From NCBI GenBank assembly GCA_048499675.1, contig JASNZL010000002.1, positions 40,138 through 104,137 on the forward strand: a stretch of 64,000 bases of DNA, given 5' to 3'. This DNA comes from Candidatus Zambryskiibacteriota bacterium. Lineage in GTDB: Bacteria; Patescibacteriota; Minisyncoccia; Phycocordibacterales; WO2-35-19. A model generated the notes under the pieces. It was not told the origin of the DNA. It saw only the letters and a list, made by a program, of their open reading frames with translations, and searched no databases. The position numbers and the translations under genes are program-made. Shown piece by piece: positions 2,823-39,010 of this stretch (its first letter is position 1; each line of letters begins with the position of its first letter).

Positions 2823-3596
2823 TTATTTCGTTAGTATCTCTATTCCAGATTTTGTTACAGCTACCGTATGCTCAAAATGCGCCGAGAGGGATTTATCACG
2901 TGTAATATAAGTATATCCATCAGAAAGTTTTTTAATATCCCTACTCCCCAAGCTAAACATTGGTTCAATTGCAATGACCATGCCGGGTCTAATTTCCGGA
3001 CCTTCACCTCTCTCTGCTTTGTTTGGTACAAAAGGATCTTCGTGAACTTCAAACCCCACTCCATGCCCAGAAAGACCTTCCACTATCCCTAAATTCCTCC
3101 TTATAGCAACTTCCATAATTGCATGCCCAATGTCCCCAATATGCCCTCCAACTCGCATCGCACTGATTCCTTTTTCTAACGCCTCTCTTGTAGCATTTAT
3201 CAAATCTCTGGCCCTGTCGTCAATTTTGCCAACAGGCACAGTAATCGCACCATCTGTAATAAGATTCTTGTGAGTTAAACCCAAATCAAGGGTTACAATA
3301 TCGCCTTCAAATAGAATTTTTCCATTGCCTTCGTTTGGAATTCCGTGGACTATTTCTTCGTTTATAGAAACACACAGAGATGCAGGGTAAGGTTTTTTTG
3401 CGTCATAAGGTTGATAACCAAAAAATGAAGCCGTGCAACCCGCCTCATCAATCAAATGTTCGGCATAATCATTTAACTCTTTAGTTTTAATCCCTGGCTT
3501 AACTTTTTTTGCGACCTCTTTCAAAATACGAGCATGTATCTTGCCCCCTTCCCTAAGTATCGCTATGTCTTCTTCTGTTTTGTACCTTATTGCCAT
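2823..3596 (-). CDS. map: methionine aminopeptidase type I
   Basis: 257 aa; pita-bread fold metal-ligand context (DIVTLDLG..., HGIGH-like HGVGFEVHE); position after adk as in the canonical operon. Confidence 0.85.
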   Translation of the reverse strand: MAIRYKTEEDIAILREGGKIHARILKEVAKKVKPGIKTKELNDYAEHLIDEAGCTASFFGYQPYDAKKPYPASLCVSINEEIVHGIPNEGNGKILFEGDIVTLDLGLTHKNLITDGAITVPVGKIDDRARDLINATREALEKGISAMRVGGHIGDIGHAIMEVAIRRNLGIVEGLSGHGVGFEVHEDPFVPNKAERGEGPEIRPGMVIAIEPMFSLGSRDIKKLSDGYTYITRDKSLSAHFEHTVAVTKSGIEILTK

Positions 3597-3600
3597 TATT

Positions 3601-4194
3601 TTATTCCAAACCCACTTTTTTCATAATTTGTTGATGAACCTCTTCTATTGAACCAGATCCATCAATAGTCAAGAATTCATAGTATGGATTATTTCTGAAA
3701 AAGTTAATTGCGGGCACAACATTTTCTTCATACCAGTTGAGTCTTTTTTCTATATCCAAATTGTTATCGTCTTCCCTTTTTCTACTAAGCAATCTTTCTG
3801 AAGCTAATTCTCTTGATAACTCAATTGAAACAACAAAAGGTTTTTCTCTTCTATAAAATTTCATTGCCGAATCCAAAACTGGTGCTTCATCAACCCTTCT
3901 AGACAGACCATCAAGAACCATATGTTCATTACCCGACGTGTGTCTAACCAAATATTCTGTCCAAATCCATATAGGCAAAAATTCTGGAATCAGTCCACCA
4001 CTTCCTATTATTTCTTTTACATATTGAGCAGTAAGAGAAGCTTCTGTAGAAAATTCTCTAAACTTTTGTCCTGTTTCTAAATAAAGCACCGGTTTTTGGG
4101 GGTCAATCTCTTTTAGTTTGTCAATTAAAAGTCTCGCTTGTGTCCCTTTACCGCATCCCGATGGCCCAAAAAATATAAATGTTTGTGGTGTCAT
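3601..4194 (-). CDS. adk: adenylate kinase
   Basis: P-loop FIFFGPSGCGKGTQ. The track ORF extends to 4254 only because it reads through an upstream 18-bp tandem repeat; the ATG at 4194 (MTPQTF) is the likely start. Confidence 0.8.
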   Translation of the reverse strand: MTPQTFIFFGPSGCGKGTQARLLIDKLKEIDPQKPVLYLETGQKFREFSTEASLTAQYVKEIIGSGGLIPEFLPIWIWTEYLVRHTSGNEHMVLDGLSRRVDEAPVLDSAMKFYRREKPFVVSIELSRELASERLLSRKREDDNNLDIEKRLNWYEENVVPAINFFRNNPYYEFLTIDGSGSIEEVHQQIMKKVGLE

Positions 4195-4198
4195 ATTT

Positions 4199-4236
4199 AA
4201 AATTAACCTAATTATACTAATTAACCTAATTATACT
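4199..4236. repeat. 2 x 18-bp tandem repeat (taacctaattatactaat) in the secY-adk spacer
   Basis: Direct tandem duplication; related ctaattaacctaa / taattagaataatt motifs recur at 26500-26530 and 52340-52390. Confidence 0.7.
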
Positions 4237-4298
4237 AATTTTTTTAGTATTCACTAATTTCCTTATTTAGAAATTAGAGTAATTAGAATAATTTAAAT

Positions 4299-10858: not shown

Positions 10859-12436
10859 TTATTGCATTGCTCGCATCATTTCTTTTGCCACAGCTTCAAT
10901 AACAGGAACACTAACGGAATTTCCAGCTTGTTTGTATAGTGCCGAATCAGAAATTTTTGGAAGTTTGTAATTTTTTGGAAAGCCTTGAATTCTAAAACAC
11001 TCTAACGGAGTCAATTTTCGTATACCCTTTTTATCTTTTATGATTGGCACATTATGTCCACCTGTCCCCATGTTTGCAGTTAAAGTTGGGCAAACACCAC
11101 TTTTATTTTCTCTAACATATTGTCTGCGCCATTGATACACTTTACCTTCTTCCTTTACGTCATTTTTTAATCTTTCATATAATGGCTTGCCATTATAGTA
11201 ATATTTTTCAGGCACGTTTTTCTCCAATAGATCGGTTACTTTTTTCGTGAGCTTTATTGGTTTTGGAAACTCAAACTTATCAAAGTAGTTTTTATTTTTG
11301 AACCCTACAATATAGATACGCTCTCGATTTTGTGGCACATTTCCATACTCCATAGTATTTAGAACTTTTGATTTTACAAAGTATCCAAGATCTTCAAGTG
11401 TTTTTTCTATAACCTCAAAAGTTTTCCCCGAATCATGGCTCTTTAGATTTTTTACATTTTCAAGCAAAAAGCCTTCTGGTTTTCGTGCCTCAATGATCCT
11501 TGCAATATCGAAAAATAAATTTCCTCTATCCTTTTTATCTTTAAAGCCGTGCCTATATCCAGCAATAGAAAAAGCTTGGCAAGGGAAACCTCCTAAAAGA
11601 AAATCAAATTTAGGCAAATCATCAATTCCAATTTTTCGTATATCCTCAACTATTAATTTTGAATCTTTAAAATTAAGATCGTATGTATCTTTACATTGTG
11701 GTTCAAAGTCATTAGCAAAAACTGTTTGGAATCCAGCATTTTCAAAACCGATCCTTATCCCTCCTACACCCGCAAATAAATCTATTGTATTAAAACCATG
11801 TTTAGTTTTTTGTTTTGGCTTGAATTCTTCTTCGAACTGTATATTTCTAATTACTTGGACAACAACACCCCGAACTTCAACCTCTTTTCTATAAAATGGG
11901 AGCATTGATTGATTTCTCGGTTCAAGCCTAAACCGTGATTTTTCTCTATACAACTTTTTGAGTGTTGCTTCATTATCATCAATAATTGCAACGACTGTTT
12001 GTCCATTTTCTGCAACAGACTGTTTTTTTATCACAACAACATCTCCGTCAAAAATACCCTCGTCAATCATACTTTCTCCGACAACTCGTAGAGCATAATA
12101 ATCTTTAGAGTTTTGTATATTAGGATCAACAAGAGAGATAAAATCTTCTCGATTTTCTATTGCCTCAATAGGCTGTCCTGCCGCAATATTGCCTAAAATC
12201 GGAATTTCAACAACAGATTTTATTTCTTTCATGAGAGATAAACTTCTTGGAGAATTTTCAGACCTTGAAATATACCCCTTTGCCTCTAGGGAATTGATAT
12301 GCTCGTGAATGGTGGAAACTGCTTTTAGTTTTAGCTCTTTCCTGATCTCTTCAATCGTTGGGGAAATACCATTTTCAGAGATATATGTTTTTATAAAATC
12401 AAAAACCTGTTTTTGCTTTTTTGTAAGTTTAGACAT
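10859..12436 (-). CDS. fusion protein: complete LexA-like repressor (wHTH + S24 peptidase) fused to a Dcm-type DNA cytosine-5 methyltransferase
   Basis: N-terminal ~200 aa is LexA-like: MSKLTKKQKQVFDFIK...EIRKEL...EAKGYI, IAAG cleavage-site context, GESM serine, LKKL lysine, VVAII..ATLKKLYRE. C-terminal ~320 aa has m5C MTase motifs: DLFAGVGG (I), GGFPCQAFSIAG (IV), LLENV (VI), QNRERIY (VIII), GNSVSVPV (X). Confidence 0.8.
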   Translation of the reverse strand: MSKLTKKQKQVFDFIKTYISENGISPTIEEIRKELKLKAVSTIHEHINSLEAKGYISRSENSPRSLSLMKEIKSVVEIPILGNIAAGQPIEAIENREDFISLVDPNIQNSKDYYALRVVGESMIDEGIFDGDVVVIKKQSVAENGQTVVAIIDDNEATLKKLYREKSRFRLEPRNQSMLPFYRKEVEVRGVVVQVIRNIQFEEEFKPKQKTKHGFNTIDLFAGVGGIRIGFENAGFQTVFANDFEPQCKDTYDLNFKDSKLIVEDIRKIGIDDLPKFDFLLGGFPCQAFSIAGYRHGFKDKKDRGNLFFDIARIIEARKPEGFLLENVKNLKSHDSGKTFEVIEKTLEDLGYFVKSKVLNTMEYGNVPQNRERIYIVGFKNKNYFDKFEFPKPIKLTKKVTDLLEKNVPEKYYYNGKPLYERLKNDVKEEGKVYQWRRQYVRENKSGVCPTLTANMGTGGHNVPIIKDKKGIRKLTPLECFRIQGFPKNYKLPKISDSALYKQAGNSVSVPVIEAVAKEMMRAMQ

Positions 12437-22011: not shown

Positions 22012-23793
22012 TTATTCTACCTCTTTCCAGCTCAAAATATTGAAACCTCCCGTTGGTCCAGATGAAAAATTTAAATCAGCAAGACCTGTTTCGTAGTTTA
22101 CTTGACCACCTCCAGAAATAATTATTTTATATGCCATCATAGCTTTGGCGCTTGTTCCTCCATTCATTTGTAGCGCTCCATAAGGAGCGGCGAGGACCAC
22201 AGCTCCAGAACCGCCCGAAATACTCAGTGCGTTGTTTTCAGAACACAAAGCATCATATGGGCAAACACTTGTTGTGACTACAAGCGGATAACTCCCCGTC
22301 TGACCAGATCCTGAAAACTGCCCGTTACCCGAAATACTCACCCTCCCATCCACCACCAAAACCCCACTTCTATTTCCATAGGAAGAATCAAGTTTAATTT
22401 TGCCTCCACCAGAAACAGTTACCGTACCGGTAACCCAGATTGTACCTGTTACATTCAATGTGCCACCGCCAGCAATACTTAAATCCCCATTTATTTTTGT
22501 AGGACCAAGAGTTGCTCCCGCCCATCCAACTGAATAATCACCATTATATACTCCTCCCGCTTCCGCCTCATCTTTCCATCCATTTATATTTGATTCTGAT
22601 ACGGGGAAATTTTGTGGTGAAGGATCACTTCTTGAAGTGTTGCAAGACTTACCATTATTCATAGTGCCATTTTGACAATATATTGTGCCATAAGTATTTG
22701 TACTATTAACTGTATTTGCCCAAGAATCACCTCCTTTTGTTCCAACTCTTAAGTAATCATAACCATCGCCTTCTATTTTTGAAACGAATCCATTTAGATA
22801 TATTTCAAAATAACCATCAAGACCAACAGGACTTGTATTGTTCCAACTTGAGCCCACTCTTCCGATTTTTGCCACACCATTTGCATAGTTTGTATTTGCC
22901 CCTATTGTGTAATATCGGCTTGAATTTGTTCCTCCATCAAGCACCACCCAATATGTAGTGCCTTCATTTAAAGGAATATAAGAACCAAAAACAACATCAA
23001 CCCAACCATATGATGTTGATACAAGACCTGCAGATAGAGTCGCTGAATCAAGGGTAGTAGAGCCGGGTACTCCACCATTATCAGTCACAATTCTAACTGT
23101 TAGATTATTTGGCGCACTTGAGGTTCTCCTTAAATAAAAACTTGCTTTGTTTAGTGGTCCTGACTCATTAACTACAAAACTCTGGGCAAAATCTTGGGTG
23201 GCATTATTATTACCAAAAATTATTTGATTTGGTGGAGTTGTTGGTGAATTGTTTGTTTGGTTGGCTGAAATAACAGGTGTATTAGCAGCTGTTGCAGAAC
23301 CTGTTATTGTAGAGCCCCCATCCCCTATAATATTTCCGTTTGAATAAACATTACCATCCACTGTTGATCCTCCATCAATAAAAAAACCTCCATTTCCTGT
23401 CTGTAAAGCAAAATTAAAAGCCACTCCTTCACCTATTACCAGAGCTGTCTCAATCTTTCTTGTATAATCTTCTCTGTTTGATATGGATGTAATAATTTTG
23501 TTACCTGAAACATCATCCGAAATTGAAGTAACAATATTTTCACCATCCAACACAAGATTATTATTTTCTGCTACAGTTATTCCATTTTTGATTCTATAAA
23601 TAACATCCTCAACCCCCGACTCAGCAAAATAATAACTTTTTTTAGTCTCACTAAAATTCTTCATTGCTTGCAAATGACTGAGTACTGGATTAACTATACC
23701 CATTGTTGCAATGATTGATACGGTAATAAAAATCACAATCATTATTATCATTGCTTGGCCTGAATTTTGTTTTGATTGTTTTGAATTCATCAT
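22012..23793 (-). CDS. large pilus-associated protein (N-terminal TM anchor, Gly/Asn/Thr/Ser-rich)
   Basis: 593 aa, a single N-terminal hydrophobic helix followed by beta-rich low-complexity repeats; adjacent to the prepilin genes. Confidence 0.45.
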   Translation of the reverse strand: MMNSKQSKQNSGQAMIIMIVIFITVSIIATMGIVNPVLSHLQAMKNFSETKKSYYFAESGVEDVIYRIKNGITVAENNNLVLDGENIVTSISDDVSGNKIITSISNREDYTRKIETALVIGEGVAFNFALQTGNGGFFIDGGSTVDGNVYSNGNIIGDGGSTITGSATAANTPVISANQTNNSPTTPPNQIIFGNNNATQDFAQSFVVNESGPLNKASFYLRRTSSAPNNLTVRIVTDNGGVPGSTTLDSATLSAGLVSTSYGWVDVVFGSYIPLNEGTTYWVVLDGGTNSSRYYTIGANTNYANGVAKIGRVGSSWNNTSPVGLDGYFEIYLNGFVSKIEGDGYDYLRVGTKGGDSWANTVNSTNTYGTIYCQNGTMNNGKSCNTSRSDPSPQNFPVSESNINGWKDEAEAGGVYNGDYSVGWAGATLGPTKINGDLSIAGGGTLNVTGTIWVTGTVTVSGGGKIKLDSSYGNRSGVLVVDGRVSISGNGQFSGSGQTGSYPLVVTTSVCPYDALCSENNALSISGGSGAVVLAAPYGALQMNGGTSAKAMMAYKIIISGGGQVNYETGLADLNFSSGPTGGFNILSWKEVE

Positions 23794-32902: not shown

Positions 32903-33790
32903 TTAATCTCTTTTGCCAGCGTTTTTGTTTGATTGGACATAACTTACACATTGACCCTGGTTTTTAAACTCTGGGTTGTTGAAAGTCATCCAGCCACCCT
33001 TTTTACATTGTTCCATATCTGTCGGAGTACCAATTGGAGCCTCAATTAAATTAAACTCCACGGTTTCTCTTATATTTGATTCACCAGCGTCTTCTACTGG
33101 ATTATAAATGAAGCAGTACATTCCGAGTGGTAAACTAGACATATCTCCTGTAAATGAGAATGTTTGGTTTGATAAATCACTTTGATCTATAACGGCTACA
33201 TCCGAGCGACCGTCAACATTACCAAAAACTGTTCCTATTCCTGCGGCGCAGGTACCTTGTCTTACCGCCCATTGAATTGCATCAGCATCGTCATCATCAA
33301 GATAAGCTGTGAAATTTACTAATCCATAAACATCTTGCCCTGAAGTTGGAGAAGTTATTTCTGCAGTCCTTGCATAAGGAACTGGCAAAACTTCAAATCT
33401 TGTCCAGTCAAATCTTTCATCTGTTTCTGCACCATATACCATACGAACATCTATAAATTCAACTGCTGGAATTGTTTTTGTCACTGAAGAATTATTAACG
33501 CACACCTGAGTCCAACGTCCATCAGTTACGCTTGGATTTGGGTTTGGTCCTGGAACTGTGTTTGCCTCATTATCTACCCTGTACTCAAAACAACTCCAAA
33601 ATGTTCTTGTGCTAATAAATTGTAAATCGGTTGTTCCCACACCAACACTAAGCTGATTAACGTGAGCCCATCCATTAGTTCGATTAATATCATTGGTGCT
33701 CGGTGTCACCGCATTGATTTCGGCATTAACAACACCGACCACTCCAAGAACCAGTACTAAACTCGCTAAAACTAAAATTGTTTTTTTCAT
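32903..33790 (-). CDS. secreted hypothetical protein (signal peptide)
   Basis: MKKTILVLASLVLVLGVVGVVNA then a 270-aa mature region with several Cys. Confidence 0.5.
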   Translation of the reverse strand: MKKTILVLASLVLVLGVVGVVNAEINAVTPSTNDINRTNGWAHVNQLSVGVGTTDLQFISTRTFWSCFEYRVDNEANTVPGPNPNPSVTDGRWTQVCVNNSSVTKTIPAVEFIDVRMVYGAETDERFDWTRFEVLPVPYARTAEITSPTSGQDVYGLVNFTAYLDDDDADAIQWAVRQGTCAAGIGTVFGNVDGRSDVAVIDQSDLSNQTFSFTGDMSSLPLGMYCFIYNPVEDAGESNIRETVEFNLIEAPIGTPTDMEQCKKGGWMTFNNPEFKNQGQCVSYVQSNKNAGKRD

Positions 33791-33957: not shown

Positions 33958-36141
33958 ATGCAGAAACTAAGTGATTTAAAAAGGCAGTTTTTGGAATATA
34001 TAGAAATTGAGAAAGGTCGTTCGCTTTTAACTATAGAAAACTACGACAGATATTTAACTCGTTTTTTGGAATTTTTGAAAAGCGAAGAACCAAAAGATAT
34101 AAATGACAATTCTGTTAGAGAATTTCGTCTTTGGCTCAATAGACAACCGGCAAGTAAAATAAAGAAAAATGCAGACACCTTGTCTCGTAGAACACAAAAC
34201 TATTATCTAATTGCTCTTCGCGCCTTTCTCAAATATCTTGCAAGACAAGGAGTTACTTCCCTATCGCCCGAAAAGATAGAGCTTGCCAAGACCCCAGAGA
34301 GATCTCTTGACCTAATCACAGACGACGAGCTTATTCGCCTCCTCAAATCCCCTTCTGGCGACAGTTTGAAAAGTTTGCGGGACAGAGCGATGTTACACCT
34401 CCTTTTTTCTACCGGTCTTCGTGTTTCTGAACTTTGTGCTCTTGACCGCGATATAGATTTAAAAAAAGACGAGCATTCTATTCGAGGAAAAGGTGGGAAA
34501 ATAAGGGTGGTTTTCTTTTCGGATGAAGCCAAGAAAGCTTTAAACGATTATTTAGAAAAAAGAAAAGACCTAAACGATGCAATGTTTATCCAACTTTCAA
34601 AAAATTTAAAACCAAATGCAAAAGGCGAAGATATGCGAATAAACAAACGCAGTGTCGCAAGAATTGTAAAACAATACGCCATCAAAGCCGGAATTTCCAA
34701 AAAAGTAACCCCGCATACACTAAGACATTGTCTCCACCCAGATACACTTATTCATTTGCCTTACACCATAACAAGCGCAAGGGAACTATATTTGTCCAAC
34801 ACAAAAAGAATAACATCGGTAGACCTTAATGTTGGGAAAACCGTAAAATCAAACATAATTCAAAAGAGAAAATATAAATCACTTGATATGATTTCTCTTT
34901 CTGCTAATGGTTATCAAATTTCTGTTACTCCAGACCACAAATTTTTTACTCTTGGAACAGATGGAATAGTGGAAATTAATGCAAGAGATATAAAGAAAAA
35001 TCAATTCATTGCTGGTGTTAAGAAAATAACAATGAATAGTTCAAAAAAATCAAGAAGTAAAAACAATTGGAGAATAATTGGTTATATTTTGGAGGATGGA
35101 ACAATAAGTGAGAAGAGGCGGGGGGTCATAATTTCTGATAAGAATCCAACTTTTATAGAATTTTATAAAGATTTAATTACTTCAGAATATAAACATAAAC
35201 CAACAATAAAAAAAATAGAAGGCGCAAATAATGTTATTTTAAATTTTTATTCAAAACAATTTGTTACTTATTTGAGAAAAATAGGAATAACAGAGAAATC
35301 ACCTCTCAGAAGAGTTCCTAAAATTTTATTCTCCCAAAGCAAAGAAGTTATAGCAGAATTTTTGGCTGGATATTACGACGCTGAAGGAAATGAGGGTAAT
35401 TCTATTAAATTTTTCTCTTCAAGTGAAATGCTTTTGCGAGATATTCAAATGTTATTATTAACTTTCGGGATTGATTCTCATTTATATAAAAGATTGAGGA
35501 GAGTAAAACTACCAAAAGGAAAAATTATAAGCCACAAAATGTTATATCTACAAATATTACACAAACCAGATCAGGAACTTTTTATTAAGATTGTTCCCAC
35601 CCTAAAAAAATTAAAAGCAAAAAGCTTTTTTGCAGGGGATAAAATTCCAGTCAGAAATATGTTAAAAGACATATATATAAATCTACCAAAAAAATGGCAC
35701 AATTTTGCTCAATATCTAAAAATAGATGGGAAAATTGATATATATAGATATGTTGGTAACACAACCAAAACAGTCCCCACAAAGAAAGTTTTGGAAAAGA
35801 TAATCAAATATTTTAGAGATGCTAAATGTAATGACCCGAGATTAGATTTTATGCAAAAACTCATTGATTCTGATATTCAGTGGCTTAGGGTTCAAAAAGT
35901 TGAAAGGTGTAAATATAATGGACCAGTATATGATTTCGCTGTAAATAAATATGAGAATTTAATAACAAACGGTTTTTTGTCGCACAACTGTTTTGCGACT
36001 GACCTTTTAAGCAATGGTGCTGATCTTCGCTCCGTTCAAGCTCTACTCGGCCACGCAAATATAGGCACAACTCAAGTTTACACCCATGTCACAGACCGCC
36101 ACCTCCGCGACATCCACAAAAAATTCCATAACAAAAAGTAA
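33958..36141 (+). CDS. XerC/XerD-family tyrosine recombinase interrupted by a 420-aa intein with LAGLIDADG homing endonuclease
   Basis: N-terminal SAM-like domain, catalytic region ...[19 protein letters not shown]...TPHTLRH, then CLHPD...[11 protein letters not shown]...[13 protein letters not shown]...GFLSHN, then [34 protein letters not shown]. The host exteins sum to ~307 aa. Confidence 0.85.
34729..35988 (+). mobile_element. intein (Cys1 ... His-Asn, then +1 Cys) with two LAGLIDADG motifs
   Basis: 1260 nt in frame; begins TGT directly after HTLRH and ends CAC AAC directly before TGT TTT GCG ACT. Confidence 0.8.
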
Positions 36142-36181
36142 AGACAACTTTTTTTATGTGCTAAAATAATTTTATGAATCC

Positions 36182-36251
36182 GGTAGTGAATTTTGGCAAT
36201 AATTCCTACGGAATTGGTTAATTAATTAACATTGCCAAAATCTACTACTGG
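36182..36251 (+). repeat. third copy of the gtagtgaattttggca..tgccaaaatctactac hairpin, abutting the start codon of the Fic gene
   Basis: ccggtagtgaattttggcaat-N29-attgccaaaatctactactgg; the same hairpin occurs at 8614-8680 and 55480-55556. Confidence 0.7.
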
Positions 36252-37256
36252 ATGAAAAACGAACACAACAAATTACAAAGTATTGTCATTTATAAAGACA
36301 AGAAAGGTAATGTTGAACTAAAAACCGATATTCAAAAAGAAACAATTTGGGCAACTCAGGACCAGATTGCTTTTCTTTTTGGTACAAAAAGGCCGGCAAT
36401 TACAAAGCACTTACAAAACATCTTTAAATCAAACGAATTAAATAAGAATTCAGTTAGTTCCATTTTGGAACATACTGCAAGCGACGGAAAGAAATACAAA
36501 ACCCAATTCTACAACTTGGACGCGATGATTGCTGTTGGATATAGAGTAAACTCAAAAAGAGCTACTCAATTTCGTATCTGGGCAACCAAAACGTTGAGAG
36601 ATTACATAATCAAAGGTGTTGCTATAAATACCGAAAGAATAAAAAAATTGCATGAAGCAGGACTCAAAGATTTGCAAAACAAAATTGAATTTATTCAAAA
36701 CACTATTCAAAAAAGAGAACTGGATAAAGACGAGATCCAGAGTCTTTTGTCTGTCATAAAGGATTATGCAAACTCCTGGACCACTCTCAAAGAATATGAC
36801 GAGGGTGATATTGTAATCAAAAAAAGCAAAAACAAAGAGAGAAAAATTTTTGATTATGAATTTGCCCGTAAAGCAATCGATGAATTAAAAATAAACCTTG
36901 TTAACAAAAAAGAAGCGGGTGATTTGTTTGGTAACGAAAGAGATGAAACATTCAAAGGCATTCTAAAAACAATTTATCAAACATTTGACAGCAAAGAGCT
37001 ATACGCGAGCTTAGAAGAAAAAGCTTCTCATTTGTTGTATTTTATAATCAAAGACCATCCGTTTTCTGATGGAAACAAAAGGGTTGGTTCTCTTTTGTTC
37101 ATTTTATTTCTAGAAAGAAATAATATTTTACTTAGAAAAAATGGGGAAAGAAAAATAAACGACAATACTCTTGTTGCCCTTGCCCTCTTGGTTGCCGAAA
37201 GCAATCCTAATGAAAAAGAAACAATGACTGCTTTAATTACAAACCTTTTGATTTAA
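36252..37256 (+). CDS. RhuM-family N-terminal domain plus Fic/Doc domain protein
   Basis: YNLDAMIAVGYRVNSKRATQFRIWATKTLRDY (RhuM-like) and a C-terminal Fic motif HPFSDGNKRVGS. Confidence 0.75.
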   Translation: MKNEHNKLQSIVIYKDKKGNVELKTDIQKETIWATQDQIAFLFGTKRPAITKHLQNIFKSNELNKNSVSSILEHTASDGKKYKTQFYNLDAMIAVGYRVNSKRATQFRIWATKTLRDYIIKGVAINTERIKKLHEAGLKDLQNKIEFIQNTIQKRELDKDEIQSLLSVIKDYANSWTTLKEYDEGDIVIKKSKNKERKIFDYEFARKAIDELKINLVNKKEAGDLFGNERDETFKGILKTIYQTFDSKELYASLEEKASHLLYFIIKDHPFSDGNKRVGSLLFILFLERNNILLRKNGERKINDNTLVALALLVAESNPNEKETMTALITNLLI

Positions 37257-37403
37257 AAAATTAAAACAAAAAGGCGCCAGAACTTGTCTGACGCCACCCA
37301 CTGTTATTTTTTAGTGGGTTTTGGTTTGGGAGCAGGCTTTTCCTGCTCCCGTGTCCAGTAAGGCTTTCCGCGCCCACTGGAGCCAGAATTGGCGTATGGC
37401 ATC

Positions 37404-37790
37404 CTATTCACCCCCTTTCTTTTCAAGCTTTACCAAGGTTCCTGCACCATCATTGAACCTTGCTAGAACCCTGCTTTTGAGAAGTTTTATAACCTCTTCG
37501 TTTATTTTTGTGTTGCAATCCAAGACACGATCTTCGTCCAGGTAAAGAATTTCCCGAACAAGCTTCTCGGGAAGTTCGAGGTTCTTCTCAAACACCTCAA
37601 AGAATTTCCCCTTTAAATCCTTTTGCCAACTTGAGCTCTGGCACTGGAGGCAGTAATCCAATTTGACTCCCAGCTCCTGCAACTCAACCAGAGTTCTCTG
37701 GACTCGAAAGAAATCGTCCGCGGAAACTTCCTCGAAAACTGCCTCGAGAGCGAAGAAACCAATACCTTCAAGACTGAGAGCGATTCCCAT
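37404..37790 (-). CDS. hypothetical protein
   Basis: SD aaaggagataat before ATG (MGIALSLEG...); moderately GC-enriched. Confidence 0.4.
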   Translation of the reverse strand: MGIALSLEGIGFFALEAVFEEVSADDFFRVQRTLVELQELGVKLDYCLQCQSSSWQKDLKGKFFEVFEKNLELPEKLVREILYLDEDRVLDCNTKINEEVIKLLKSRVLARFNDGAGTLVKLEKKGGE

Positions 37791-38264
37791 ATTATCTCCT
37801 TTTCTCAAAGAACTTAGGGATTTCTCCCTAGTAAAATTCGTTTTGTTTACGGATCTTGCTAGGGAGGGCGATTGCTTTTAGGTAATCGCCCTATCTTGCG
37901 ATGATTCCTCAGGGAGAGTCAATCAACATACTGACCCTGTACCCCCTTGGCTTTTGCTATTCGCTCGGCTTCCGCACTAGGTCCTCGAGCAGTTTGTTGG
38001 GTTTGGCTTTTTCCCCTTCGCTCAACAAACCATGTTTAGCCGCAGACTCCGTCCGCCACCTGCAACCGCATCGCAAACGGAAGGCAAATTCGTCAAAGAA
38101 CTTTGTTTTACTTCTGTATCCATTATAGCAAATTTAATGTAAATAGTCAAGCACTATATCTAAACTTTAAACTAAATAAACCTTTATTTACAATGGTTTT
38201 TTGTTATATACAAGATAATAGTCAAAAATATTGACTATTTTTACGCTCTTGATATAATATAACT

Positions 38265-38996
38265 ATGATCAAAATTAAAGAAGCTTTAAAGAATTTGGGA
38301 CTTAACGAAAAGCAAACAATTGTATATTTAAGTTTACTTCAGCTTGGAAATACCACTGCATATAAAATTGCTCAAAAGAGTGGCCTTAAAAGGCCGACCG
38401 TATATGTGGTTATGGAAGAATTAAGACAAAAGGGTCTTGTTTTGAAAATTCCCTACCCCAAAAAACAAATATATGGTGCAAAATCTCCCGAGGAATTAAT
38501 AATTGAGTCTGAAAGTAAAATAAGTGCCATTAGAAATATGTTGCCAGAACTCATGGCTTTGATGAGGAACGATGACAAACCAAGTGTTATGTATTTTGAA
38601 GGACTAGATGGCATAAAGGAAATACTAAACTTTGGATTGAATAAGTTAGAAAACAGTGAGCTTGTAGGTTTCAATGCTCATGCTGACGGGACAGATGAAA
38701 GAATGGTAAGCATTTTTGATGAGTATAACAACATATTAAAAAGAAAAAATGTAAAAATCAGAGGAATCGTTCCAGAGCACTTAAGTTTGAAGCAATACCG
38801 AGAGGAAGATGAAATATTCAACAGAAAAATGAAAACTGTTGCCTTTGATAAATATTCCTCCAATGTTTCAATTGATATTGGATCAGATTTTGTAAAAATC
38901 TTAATGTTTAGTACATTGCAAGGGGTGATTATCGAAGATAAAAATTTGGCTATGGCAATGAAACAAATATTCGAAATGCAGTGGGATAGTATTTAG
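38265..38996 (+). CDS. TrmB-family transcriptional regulator
   Basis: N-terminal wHTH LNEKQTIVYLSLLQLGNTTAYKIAQKSGLKRPTVYVVMEELRQKGLV. Confidence 0.65.
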   Translation: MIKIKEALKNLGLNEKQTIVYLSLLQLGNTTAYKIAQKSGLKRPTVYVVMEELRQKGLVLKIPYPKKQIYGAKSPEELIIESESKISAIRNMLPELMALMRNDDKPSVMYFEGLDGIKEILNFGLNKLENSELVGFNAHADGTDERMVSIFDEYNNILKRKNVKIRGIVPEHLSLKQYREEDEIFNRKMKTVAFDKYSSNVSIDIGSDFVKILMFSTLQGVIIEDKNLAMAMKQIFEMQWDSI

Positions 38997-39010
38997 GTTA
39001 AGATATAAAT

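Follow-up and report, generated by a model that had tools for sequence, protein, structure and literature searches.

The window analysed here is a stretch of 64,000 nucleotides from a Candidatus Zambryskiibacteriota bacterium of the candidate phyla radiation (CPR) (assembly GCA_048499675.1, contig JASNZL010000002.1, positions 40,138 to 104,137 of the forward strand). The open reading frame (ORF) list and its translation show, at 33958..36141 on the forward strand, a frame of 727 amino acids plus stop that encodes a Xer-type tyrosine recombinase split by an intein. Reading and translating the DNA placed the insert at nucleotides 34729..35988, corresponding to codons 258-677, that is, 1260 nt or 420 codons in frame with both flanks. 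The last codon of the N-extein is CAT (His257), ending at 34728; the intein begins with TGT (Cys1, 34729-34731) and closes with CAC-AAC (His-Asn, 35983-35988), and the first codon of the C-extein is again TGT (Cys+1, 35989-35991). An earlier reading made from the letters alone (the sequence-only reading) had proposed a 420-residue intein at these exact positions, starting with Cys and ending in His-Asn followed by Cys; the codons bear out both its coordinates and its boundary residues, and every peptide that it quoted is found in the translation. The G+C content of the intein (0.29, with 0.22 at third codon positions, GC3) is set apart from that of the exteins (0.38 and 0.46). Searches of the six-frame translation with hidden Markov models of the intein and the exteins, together with Pfam searches of the other large ORFs, revealed no other tyrosine recombinase or intein in the 64-kb window. 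The features discussed below are listed in Table 1.

Table 1. Coordinates of the split recombinase gene, its catalytic and splicing motifs, and the ORFs that follow it (positions in the window; residue numbers of the precursor unless stated; counts refer to 121 intein-bearing homologues).
Feature	Position	Strand	Remarks
Precursor	33958..36141	+	Pfam: Phage_integrase, Phage_int_SAM_1, Intein_splicing, LAGLIDADG_3
N-extein, 257 aa	33958..34728	+	SAM-like core-binding domain and first part of catalytic domain
R155 in TGLRVSEL	34411-34434	+	N-extein
K178 in RGKGGKIR	34483-34506	+	N-extein
H253/R256 in HTLRH	34714-34728	+	N-extein
Intein, 420 aa, class 1, with nested LAGLIDADG homing endonuclease	34729..35988	+	Profiles, AlphaFold2 model, Foldseek
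Block A with Cys1 nucleophile	34729..34767	+	Cys1 in 121/121, immediately after R-H
Block B with T-x-x-H (TPDH, intein residues 67-70)	34909..34950	+	T/S324 in 121/121, H327 in 121/121
LAGLIDADG motif 1 (IIGYILEDG), catalytic Asp380	35068..35109	+	Glu379 here, Gly in 119/121
LAGLIDADG motif 2, catalytic Glu476	35359..35397	+	Glu in 116/121, Asp in 5/121
Blocks F and G (VYDF...SHN, then C), block-F Asp659 and terminal His-Asn	35926..35988	+	D659, H676 and N677 each in 120/121
C-extein, 50 aa plus stop, starting at Cys+1	35989..36141	+	
H-III in LLGHANI	36043-36063	+	C-extein
Catalytic Tyr708 in TQVYTHV	36070-36090	+	C-extein
RhuM/Fic-family gene	36252..37256		Pfam Virulence_RhuM and Fic
Island ORF	37404..37808	-	
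Island ORF, 243 aa	38265..38996		

In the precursor Pfam recognised Phage_integrase (E = 3.5e-37) and Phage_int_SAM_1 (E = 3.9e-14), the former as two pieces that flank the insert. Splicing in silico, by removal of codons 258-677, left a protein of 307 residues that gave one unbroken match to the XerD, XerC and XerA models and covered positions 2-289 of the 290 in the XerD model. The claim of an Xer-like host that is intact on both sides of the insert is thereby upheld. Among the NCBIfam models the spliced protein scored 241 bits against XerA_Arch (cut-off 220) and fell below the equivalog cut-offs of XerD (255.5 versus 329.6 bits) and XerC (251.3 versus 335.15 bits); it is best called an Xer-like protein of the single-recombinase type (XerA/XerD-like). 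It aligned end to end with Pyrococcus abyssi XerA (4a8e), Escherichia coli XerD (1a0p) and Thermoplasma XerA (5hxy), with E-values of 1e-38 to 9e-39, differing from these resolvases in the CPR-typical FATDLL in place of FATHLL. There was no gap at the junction in the comparisons with 4a8e and 1a0p, and Cys+1 occupies the position of the Ser or Ala in the RH(S/A)FATHLL motif of the solved XerA and XerD structures.

The catalytic residues of XerD are R148, K172, H244, R247, H270 and Y279. By analogy with that numbering we take R155, K178, H253, R256, H699 and Y708 to be the RKHRHY set of the host; all six are present, and they are invariant in the 25-121 homologues compared. The insertion point lies one residue past the catalytic Arg-II (R256 of H253-x-x-R256), such that Arg-I, Lys, His-II and Arg-II in the N-extein are parted from His-III and Tyr in the C-extein. 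The sequence-only reading had placed the intein directly after the HxLRH box and beside the active-site histidine. The first part of that description stands, whereas the adjoining residue, His257, though conserved, lies outside the canonical RKHRHY set, and "one residue after Arg-II" describes the site better.

The closest relative of the exteins, P0268, is a 307-residue protein without an intein, at 87% amino acid identity, and no intein-free allele nearer than this was found in the protein search. The gene order at its locus (L002) matches that of the window, with genes for a T2SSE ATPase, S15, Xer, an Exo_endo_phos protein, the CCA-adding enzyme and RecJ. The junction was compared at the DNA level by global alignment of the spliced DNA, a full-gene MAFFT alignment having misplaced the long gap; the spliced gene of the window and the L002 gene are 924 and 924 nt long and align with no indel at the junction. 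Alignment with an intein-free gene thus agrees with an exact insertion of 1260 nt that supplies no recombinase residues. The spliced-junction DNA of the window, the presumed target of the endonuclease, reads CATACACTAAGACAT followed by TGTTTTGCGACTGAC, and the corresponding junction of the empty L002 allele reads CACACAATGCGACAC followed by ATGTTTGCTACTGAT. The neighbours of xer in the window, as identified by Pfam, are chromosomal housekeeping genes (EF-G, PNPase, RecG, RecJ and the CCA enzyme). This context, together with the conserved synteny, suits a cellular Xer better than an integrase of phage origin.

The insert itself was recognised, well above chance expectation, by the Pfam models Intein_splicing (E = 3e-22) and LAGLIDADG_3 (E = 1e-17, in two stretches). 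It also passed the NCBIfam models intein_Nterm and intein_Cterm, with 33.7 and 23.2 bits against cut-offs of 24.5 and 15.6. All four of blocks A, B, F and G are present, as expected if the proposed intein carries a Hint domain, and the two LAGLIDADG-type motifs noted earlier each have their catalytic acid in place. An AlphaFold2 model of the intein, built from 118 aligned sequences, has a mean pLDDT (predicted local distance difference test) of 95.3 and a pTM (predicted template modelling score) of 0.93. In this model residues ~1-105 and 382-420 form the beta-rich halves of the Hint fold, residues 111-123 and 205-217 form the two LAGLIDADG helices within an alpha/beta core, and residues ~309-380 form a helical region.

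A Foldseek search of the PDB with the model returned the TliVMA intein (7qss, E = 6e-26) first, followed by PI-PfuI, PI-PkoII, PhoVMA and PI-SceI, and both the terminal beta-strand parts and the endonuclease domain superpose on the TliVMA, PI-PfuI and PI-SceI inteins. Free LAGLIDADG enzymes such as I-DmoI ranked after the inteins and matched the central domain; searched alone, the endonuclease domain matched I-DmoI and I-Tsp061I (E ~1e-6, TMt 0.6-0.7). TliVMA, PI-PfuI (1dq3, ribonucleotide reductase), PI-PkoII (2cw7, PolB) and the yeast PI-SceI (1vde) have in common with the present intein a Hint domain interrupted by a LAGLIDADG endonuclease that has two motifs and an additional helical region, with E-values from 6e-26 to 1e-10 and TM scores of ~0.5-0.68, and they share its class-1 residues (C1, TxxH, HN and C/S+1). 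They differ from it in sequence (10-23% identity), in host protein and insertion site, and in their hosts, which are Thermococcales or yeast as against CPR bacteria and DPANN archaea here. The insert is thus confirmed as a class-1 intein with a nested two-motif LAGLIDADG homing endonuclease.

Conservation was assessed over 121 intein-bearing homologues with 41-98% identity. Cys1 and the His of the block-B (T/S)xxH motif are present in 121/121, and the block-F Asp and the terminal His-Asn in 120/121, the remaining sequence being gapped. The endonuclease acids are retained to the same degree (D380 in 120/121 and E/D476 in 121/121), and residues G471, Y473, D474, A475 and G477 of motif 2 are invariant. 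The +1 residue is Ser in 105 and Cys in 15 of these homologues (S/C in 120/120), and it is likewise S/C in 40/40 GTDB loci with the intein. The same position in the 120 closest intein-free Xer proteins (P0268-P0387) is hypervariable, while the neighbouring motif residues are invariant: Cys was found in 43, Leu in 30, Met in 25, Val in 13 and Ser in 9, so that S/C accounts for 52/120, and the syntenic empty allele of L002 has Met. A +1 nucleophile is obligatory, then, only where the intein is present, and this provides indirect but strong evidence that splicing is required in vivo.

Substitution patterns were examined using an independently assembled locus (L003, Logan SRR6488406) with 97% nucleotide identity to the window. 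The exteins differ by 33 synonymous and 2 non-synonymous changes, giving a dN/dS ratio (omega) of 0.015, and this very strong constraint in the intein-bearing state indicates a host gene in active use. The intein differs by 12 synonymous and 13 non-synonymous changes (omega 0.27, below 1 at p = 0.002). In more distant pairs pN is much lower than pS in the endonuclease and Hint parts alike, with omega ~0.12 where computable, although these ratios are qualitative only because synonymous sites are mostly saturated. On this evidence both the splicing residues and the endonuclease acids are conserved and subject to purifying selection. These data also bear on the suggestion that xer is a pseudogene, its insert being either a relic unable to splice or a product of misassembly. 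The source is metagenome-type sequence and nothing positive speaks for this suggestion, whereas the same architecture recurs in the independent L003 assembly and in more than 240 protein clusters, the frame is intact with all splicing residues present, the exteins are strongly constrained while carrying the intein, and the +1 residue is always a nucleophile where there is an intein. We regard such an origin as extremely improbable and reject it on the grounds of selection and independent assembly.

The intein is widespread. A search with the full-length protein gave at least 244 clusters, of which the best 120 nearly all comprised Xer, intein and LAGLIDADG parts, two being truncated sequences. 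Their sources include Nomura-, Wolfe-, Azam-, Kaiser-, Yanofsky- and Saccharibacteria, among others, and some copies are already labelled "site-specific recombinase XerD/intein/homing endonuclease" by JGI. A phmmer scan of 1.84 billion representatives produced 32 matches at E <=1e-30; those at or above ~143 bits that were checked all lie in tyrosine recombinases, and even very divergent hosts without the SAM-like domain bear the intein at the same site, between H-x-x-R-H and S. A genome scan of the GTDB species representatives yielded 41 loci that matched over all or nearly all of the length at 33-68% identity, of which 40 have the same junctions (H-x-x-R-H, then C...HN, then S/C). The sequence-only reading had called inteins in Xer recombinases uncommon; this is fair for Xer genes overall and for the literature searched, but it does not describe an element found in no fewer than 244 clusters and 41 GTDB species of Patescibacteria and DPANN archaea.

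Seven of the loci are in metagenome-assembled genomes (MAGs) of DPANN archaea (Woese-, Pace- and Nanoarchaeota: L010, L013, L014, L016, L017, L029 and L030). Their exteins are of the XerA type (SFATHLLE-G-DIR) as against the CPR type (FATDLL-NGADLR), and an archaeal L18e-L13-S9 ribosomal operon 1 kb away on the L017 contig shows that the host is indeed archaeal. L011 groups with these seven, although its record is labelled Chloroflexi. Four further loci (L020, L023, L027 and L028) are labelled "uncultured Gammaproteobacteria" and have exteins of the CPR type. Given these exteins and the grouping of L011, the record labels look unreliable. The one locus of the 41 without these junctions, in a Saccharibacteria MAG (L037, CAYVRE010000001.1, match 3001-4240), appears frameshifted or truncated near the C-terminus of the intein, reading ...WYCKP* instead of ...SHN, which may reflect either decay of the copy or faulty assembly.

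The histories of intein and exteins disagree. All 120 best extein matches (69-87% identity) in the protein search lack the intein. Mean extein identity is 0.545 between bacteria and 0.322 between bacteria and archaea, whereas the corresponding values for the intein are 0.418 and 0.409, and the two sets of identities are discordant (Mantel r = 0.39). Among the loci compared, the exteins of the window are closest to those of L019 and L025 (0.68 and 0.67), whose inteins share just 0.40-0.41 identity with that of the window; the intein of the window is closest to those of L044 and L004 (0.68 and 0.65). Between the window and the archaeal L010 the extein identity is 0.33 and the intein identity 0.45, and the ratio of intein to extein dN ranges from ~0.4 to 5 across pairs. 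In neighbour-joining trees the exteins separate archaea from bacteria in 100/100 bootstraps, the inteins in 1/100. This discordance, taken with the absence of the intein from the closest exteins, shows repeated horizontal movement, including movement between domains. Judging from these comparisons the element has moved horizontally both from one CPR lineage to another and across the divide between CPR bacteria and DPANN archaea. A virus was considered as the carrier and found unsupported, as IMG/VR viral contigs held no close relative of the intein (best match 25% identity).

Taken together, the data are best explained by a genuine class-1 self-splicing intein, with a homing endonuclease, in the single Xer-type recombinase of a CPR chromosome, and we would put the probability of this reading at roughly 0.9. 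Translation would give the 727-residue precursor with its active site divided, R155, K178, H253 and R256 upstream of the intein and H699 and Tyr708 downstream, and since the insert physically splits the active site the unspliced precursor should not recombine DNA. Going by the conserved residues, splicing would take four steps: an N-S acyl shift at Cys1 assisted by the block-B T-x-x-H, trans-thioesterification onto Cys+1, cyclisation of Asn420 with the help of His419 and the block-F Asp, and an S-N shift. The predicted products are the 307-residue Xer recombinase (...HTLRH-CFATDLL...) and the free 420-residue intein. The endonuclease of the latter would then cut intein-less xer genes at the DNA encoding H-x-x-R-H followed by S/C-F-A-T, and repair from the intein-bearing copy would spread the element (homing).

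Several points weigh against this reading or soften it. The case for splicing and for DNA cleavage is drawn from sequence, fold and selection. The difference in +1 nucleophiles between intein-bearing and intein-free proteins has a nominal Fisher p of 9e-27, a value that ignores phylogenetic non-independence. The bootstrap values for the split between archaea and bacteria come from simple neighbour-joining trees of saturated sequences. Between the window and L003 the dS of the intein (0.048) is four-fold lower than that of the exteins (0.186; p = 5e-5), which would fit recent homing but could also be explained by the extreme AT bias of the intein, with its GC3 of 0.22. The window covers 64 kb, and a second, intein-free xer could lie elsewhere in the genome. 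Finally, Glu379, directly before the catalytic Asp380, is unique to the window copy among the 121 homologues, and the endonuclease of this copy may be impaired by it.

This last point deserves separate consideration. Codon 379 of the window (35092-35094) encodes Glu, so that motif 1 reads EDG in place of the GDG found in 119/121 homologues, L003 included. Because the substitution is unique, it is uncertain whether the window copy is still an active nuclease. Endonuclease decay followed by loss of the intein or its reduction to a mini-intein is the classic homing cycle, and the intein of the window might accordingly splice while its endonuclease is dead or dying, being inherited only vertically and heading for a mini-intein or for loss. 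Besides the retention of Gly in the 97%-identical L003, this possibility draws on the higher share of non-synonymous changes in the intein (13 of the 25 differences from L003, with omega 0.27 against 0.015 in the exteins), many of which lie in the helical stretch beyond the LAGLIDADG core. The equivalent Gly (G19 of I-CreI and G20 of I-DmoI) is known to be activity-sensitive, in either direction depending on context (PMC2847234), but in engineered enzymes Gly-to-Ser at this position in just one of the two motifs raised activity, which makes the effect of Glu unpredictable (PMC2847234). In addition, the motifs are otherwise unaltered, the two catalytic acids included, the omega of the intein is still significantly below 1, and the full-length intein has a confidently folded endonuclease domain in the model. 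We therefore view loss of endonuclease function as a possible but somewhat unlikely state of this copy.

It is also conceivable that the intein has been retained as a post-translational switch, with conditional splicing controlling Xer through a Cys1-Cys+1 disulfide redox trap or in response to DNA damage. The window copy has Cys at both positions, the insertion splits the active site and ought to leave the unspliced protein inactive, the intein is retained in many lineages with its splicing residues conserved, and conditional splicing has been proposed for other inteins of DNA metabolism (Novikova et al., PMC4760082). Against this, Cys+1 is found in just 15/121 alleles, the rest having Ser, which is incapable of forming a disulfide; the patchy distribution, with closest relatives that lack the intein, is more in keeping with a selfish element than with a regulator that the cell cannot do without; and the endonuclease domain, for which a purely regulatory intein would have no use, is no less conserved than the Hint domain. 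A regulatory role is accordingly improbable, and a mobile, self-splicing element with a homing endonuclease accounts better for the pattern.

The hypervariable +1 position of the intein-free relatives may itself reflect escape, either of the target site or from the need for a nucleophile. With the residues observed there, 57% of the 120 intein-free proteins would be unable to supply the +1 nucleophile, and the centre of the target would be altered. One could extend this to an arms race at the +1 codon within the clade in which the intein circulates, the variable residue having been selected because it keeps out an element that passes between CPR and DPANN hosts living in common habitats, but we consider this doubtful; both the arms race and the conditional regulation of Xer by splicing are speculative.

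Outside the tyrosine recombinases, the nearest inteins by sequence are those of archaeal RadA, MCM and radical-SAM proteins. In the scan of 1.84 billion proteins a RadA/Rad51 intein (P0148) scored 131 bits with 31% identity and an MCM intein (P0146) 135 bits, and the Pho RadA mini-intein was among the PDB sequence matches. These are separated from the Xer-hosted inteins by a gap in score (<=135 bits versus 143-387 bits) and by their extein context, while sharing with the Xer intein a preference for catalytic sites of DNA-metabolism proteins. A second parallel is found in the rRNA genes of CPR bacteria, which carry LAGLIDADG homing endonuclease insertions (PMC11270868). These lineages are unusually rich in homing elements aimed at conserved genes, and the nuclease family is the same, but those enzymes are intron/IS-encoded and mostly single-domain, and both their mobility and their removal take place at the RNA level (PMC11270868), in contrast to removal at the protein level for the Xer intein. 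That study mentions inteins in passing, and not in Xer.

We found no characterised Xer with an intein, and the word "intein" is absent from the reviews of Xer and tyrosine recombinases that were searched. A literature search, with the supplementary tables of PMC4760082 outside its scope, likewise returned no paper on an intein in a natural Xer or tyrosine recombinase. What is new is the host protein, the insertion site and the distribution across CPR and DPANN; class-1 LAGLIDADG inteins as a kind are known, and the domains are recognised automatically by annotation pipelines. Xer, a site-specific tyrosine recombinase, is added to the known intein hosts, which fits and extends the preference for catalytic sites in DNA metabolism while leaving current ideas of intein and Xer function as they are. 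An intein allele that crosses the CPR/DPANN boundary is a marker of exchange between ultra-small, co-occurring organisms. In practical terms, entries of ~730 residues in Patescibacteria and DPANN that are annotated as "tyrosine-type recombinase/integrase" or "hypothetical protein" are to be read as a 307-residue Xer plus an intein. The intein is compact and apparently well folded, with an endonuclease presumably aimed at a highly conserved 30-bp recombinase motif, and could serve as a scaffold for splicing or meganuclease work.

Some further features of the window were noted. Directly downstream of xer lies a variable island (36252..39010) of three genes (Table 1), all missing from the syntenic L002, in which xer is immediately followed by Exo_endo_phos; of the three, L003 has the Fic gene alone. 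Between the xer stop and the RhuM/Fic ORF is a 23-nt inverted repeat (36178-36200 and 36231-36253, 87% complementary, 30-nt spacer), the right arm of which overlaps the RhuM/Fic ATG at 36252; it could be a terminator, a regulatory hairpin or the boundary of an inserted cassette. Two ORFs on the reverse strand, of 593 residues (22012..23793) and 295 residues (32903..33790), matched no Pfam family at E <=1e-4; the second begins with an apparent signal peptide and immediately precedes xer, in the opposite orientation. Another reverse-strand ORF, of 525 residues (10859..12436), combines a LexA DNA-binding domain (Pfam E = 6e-19), Peptidase_S24 (6.5e-28) and a full C-5 cytosine DNA methyltransferase domain (1.3e-94); its product, unusual in architecture, would join a LexA-like repressor to a Dcm-type methylase.

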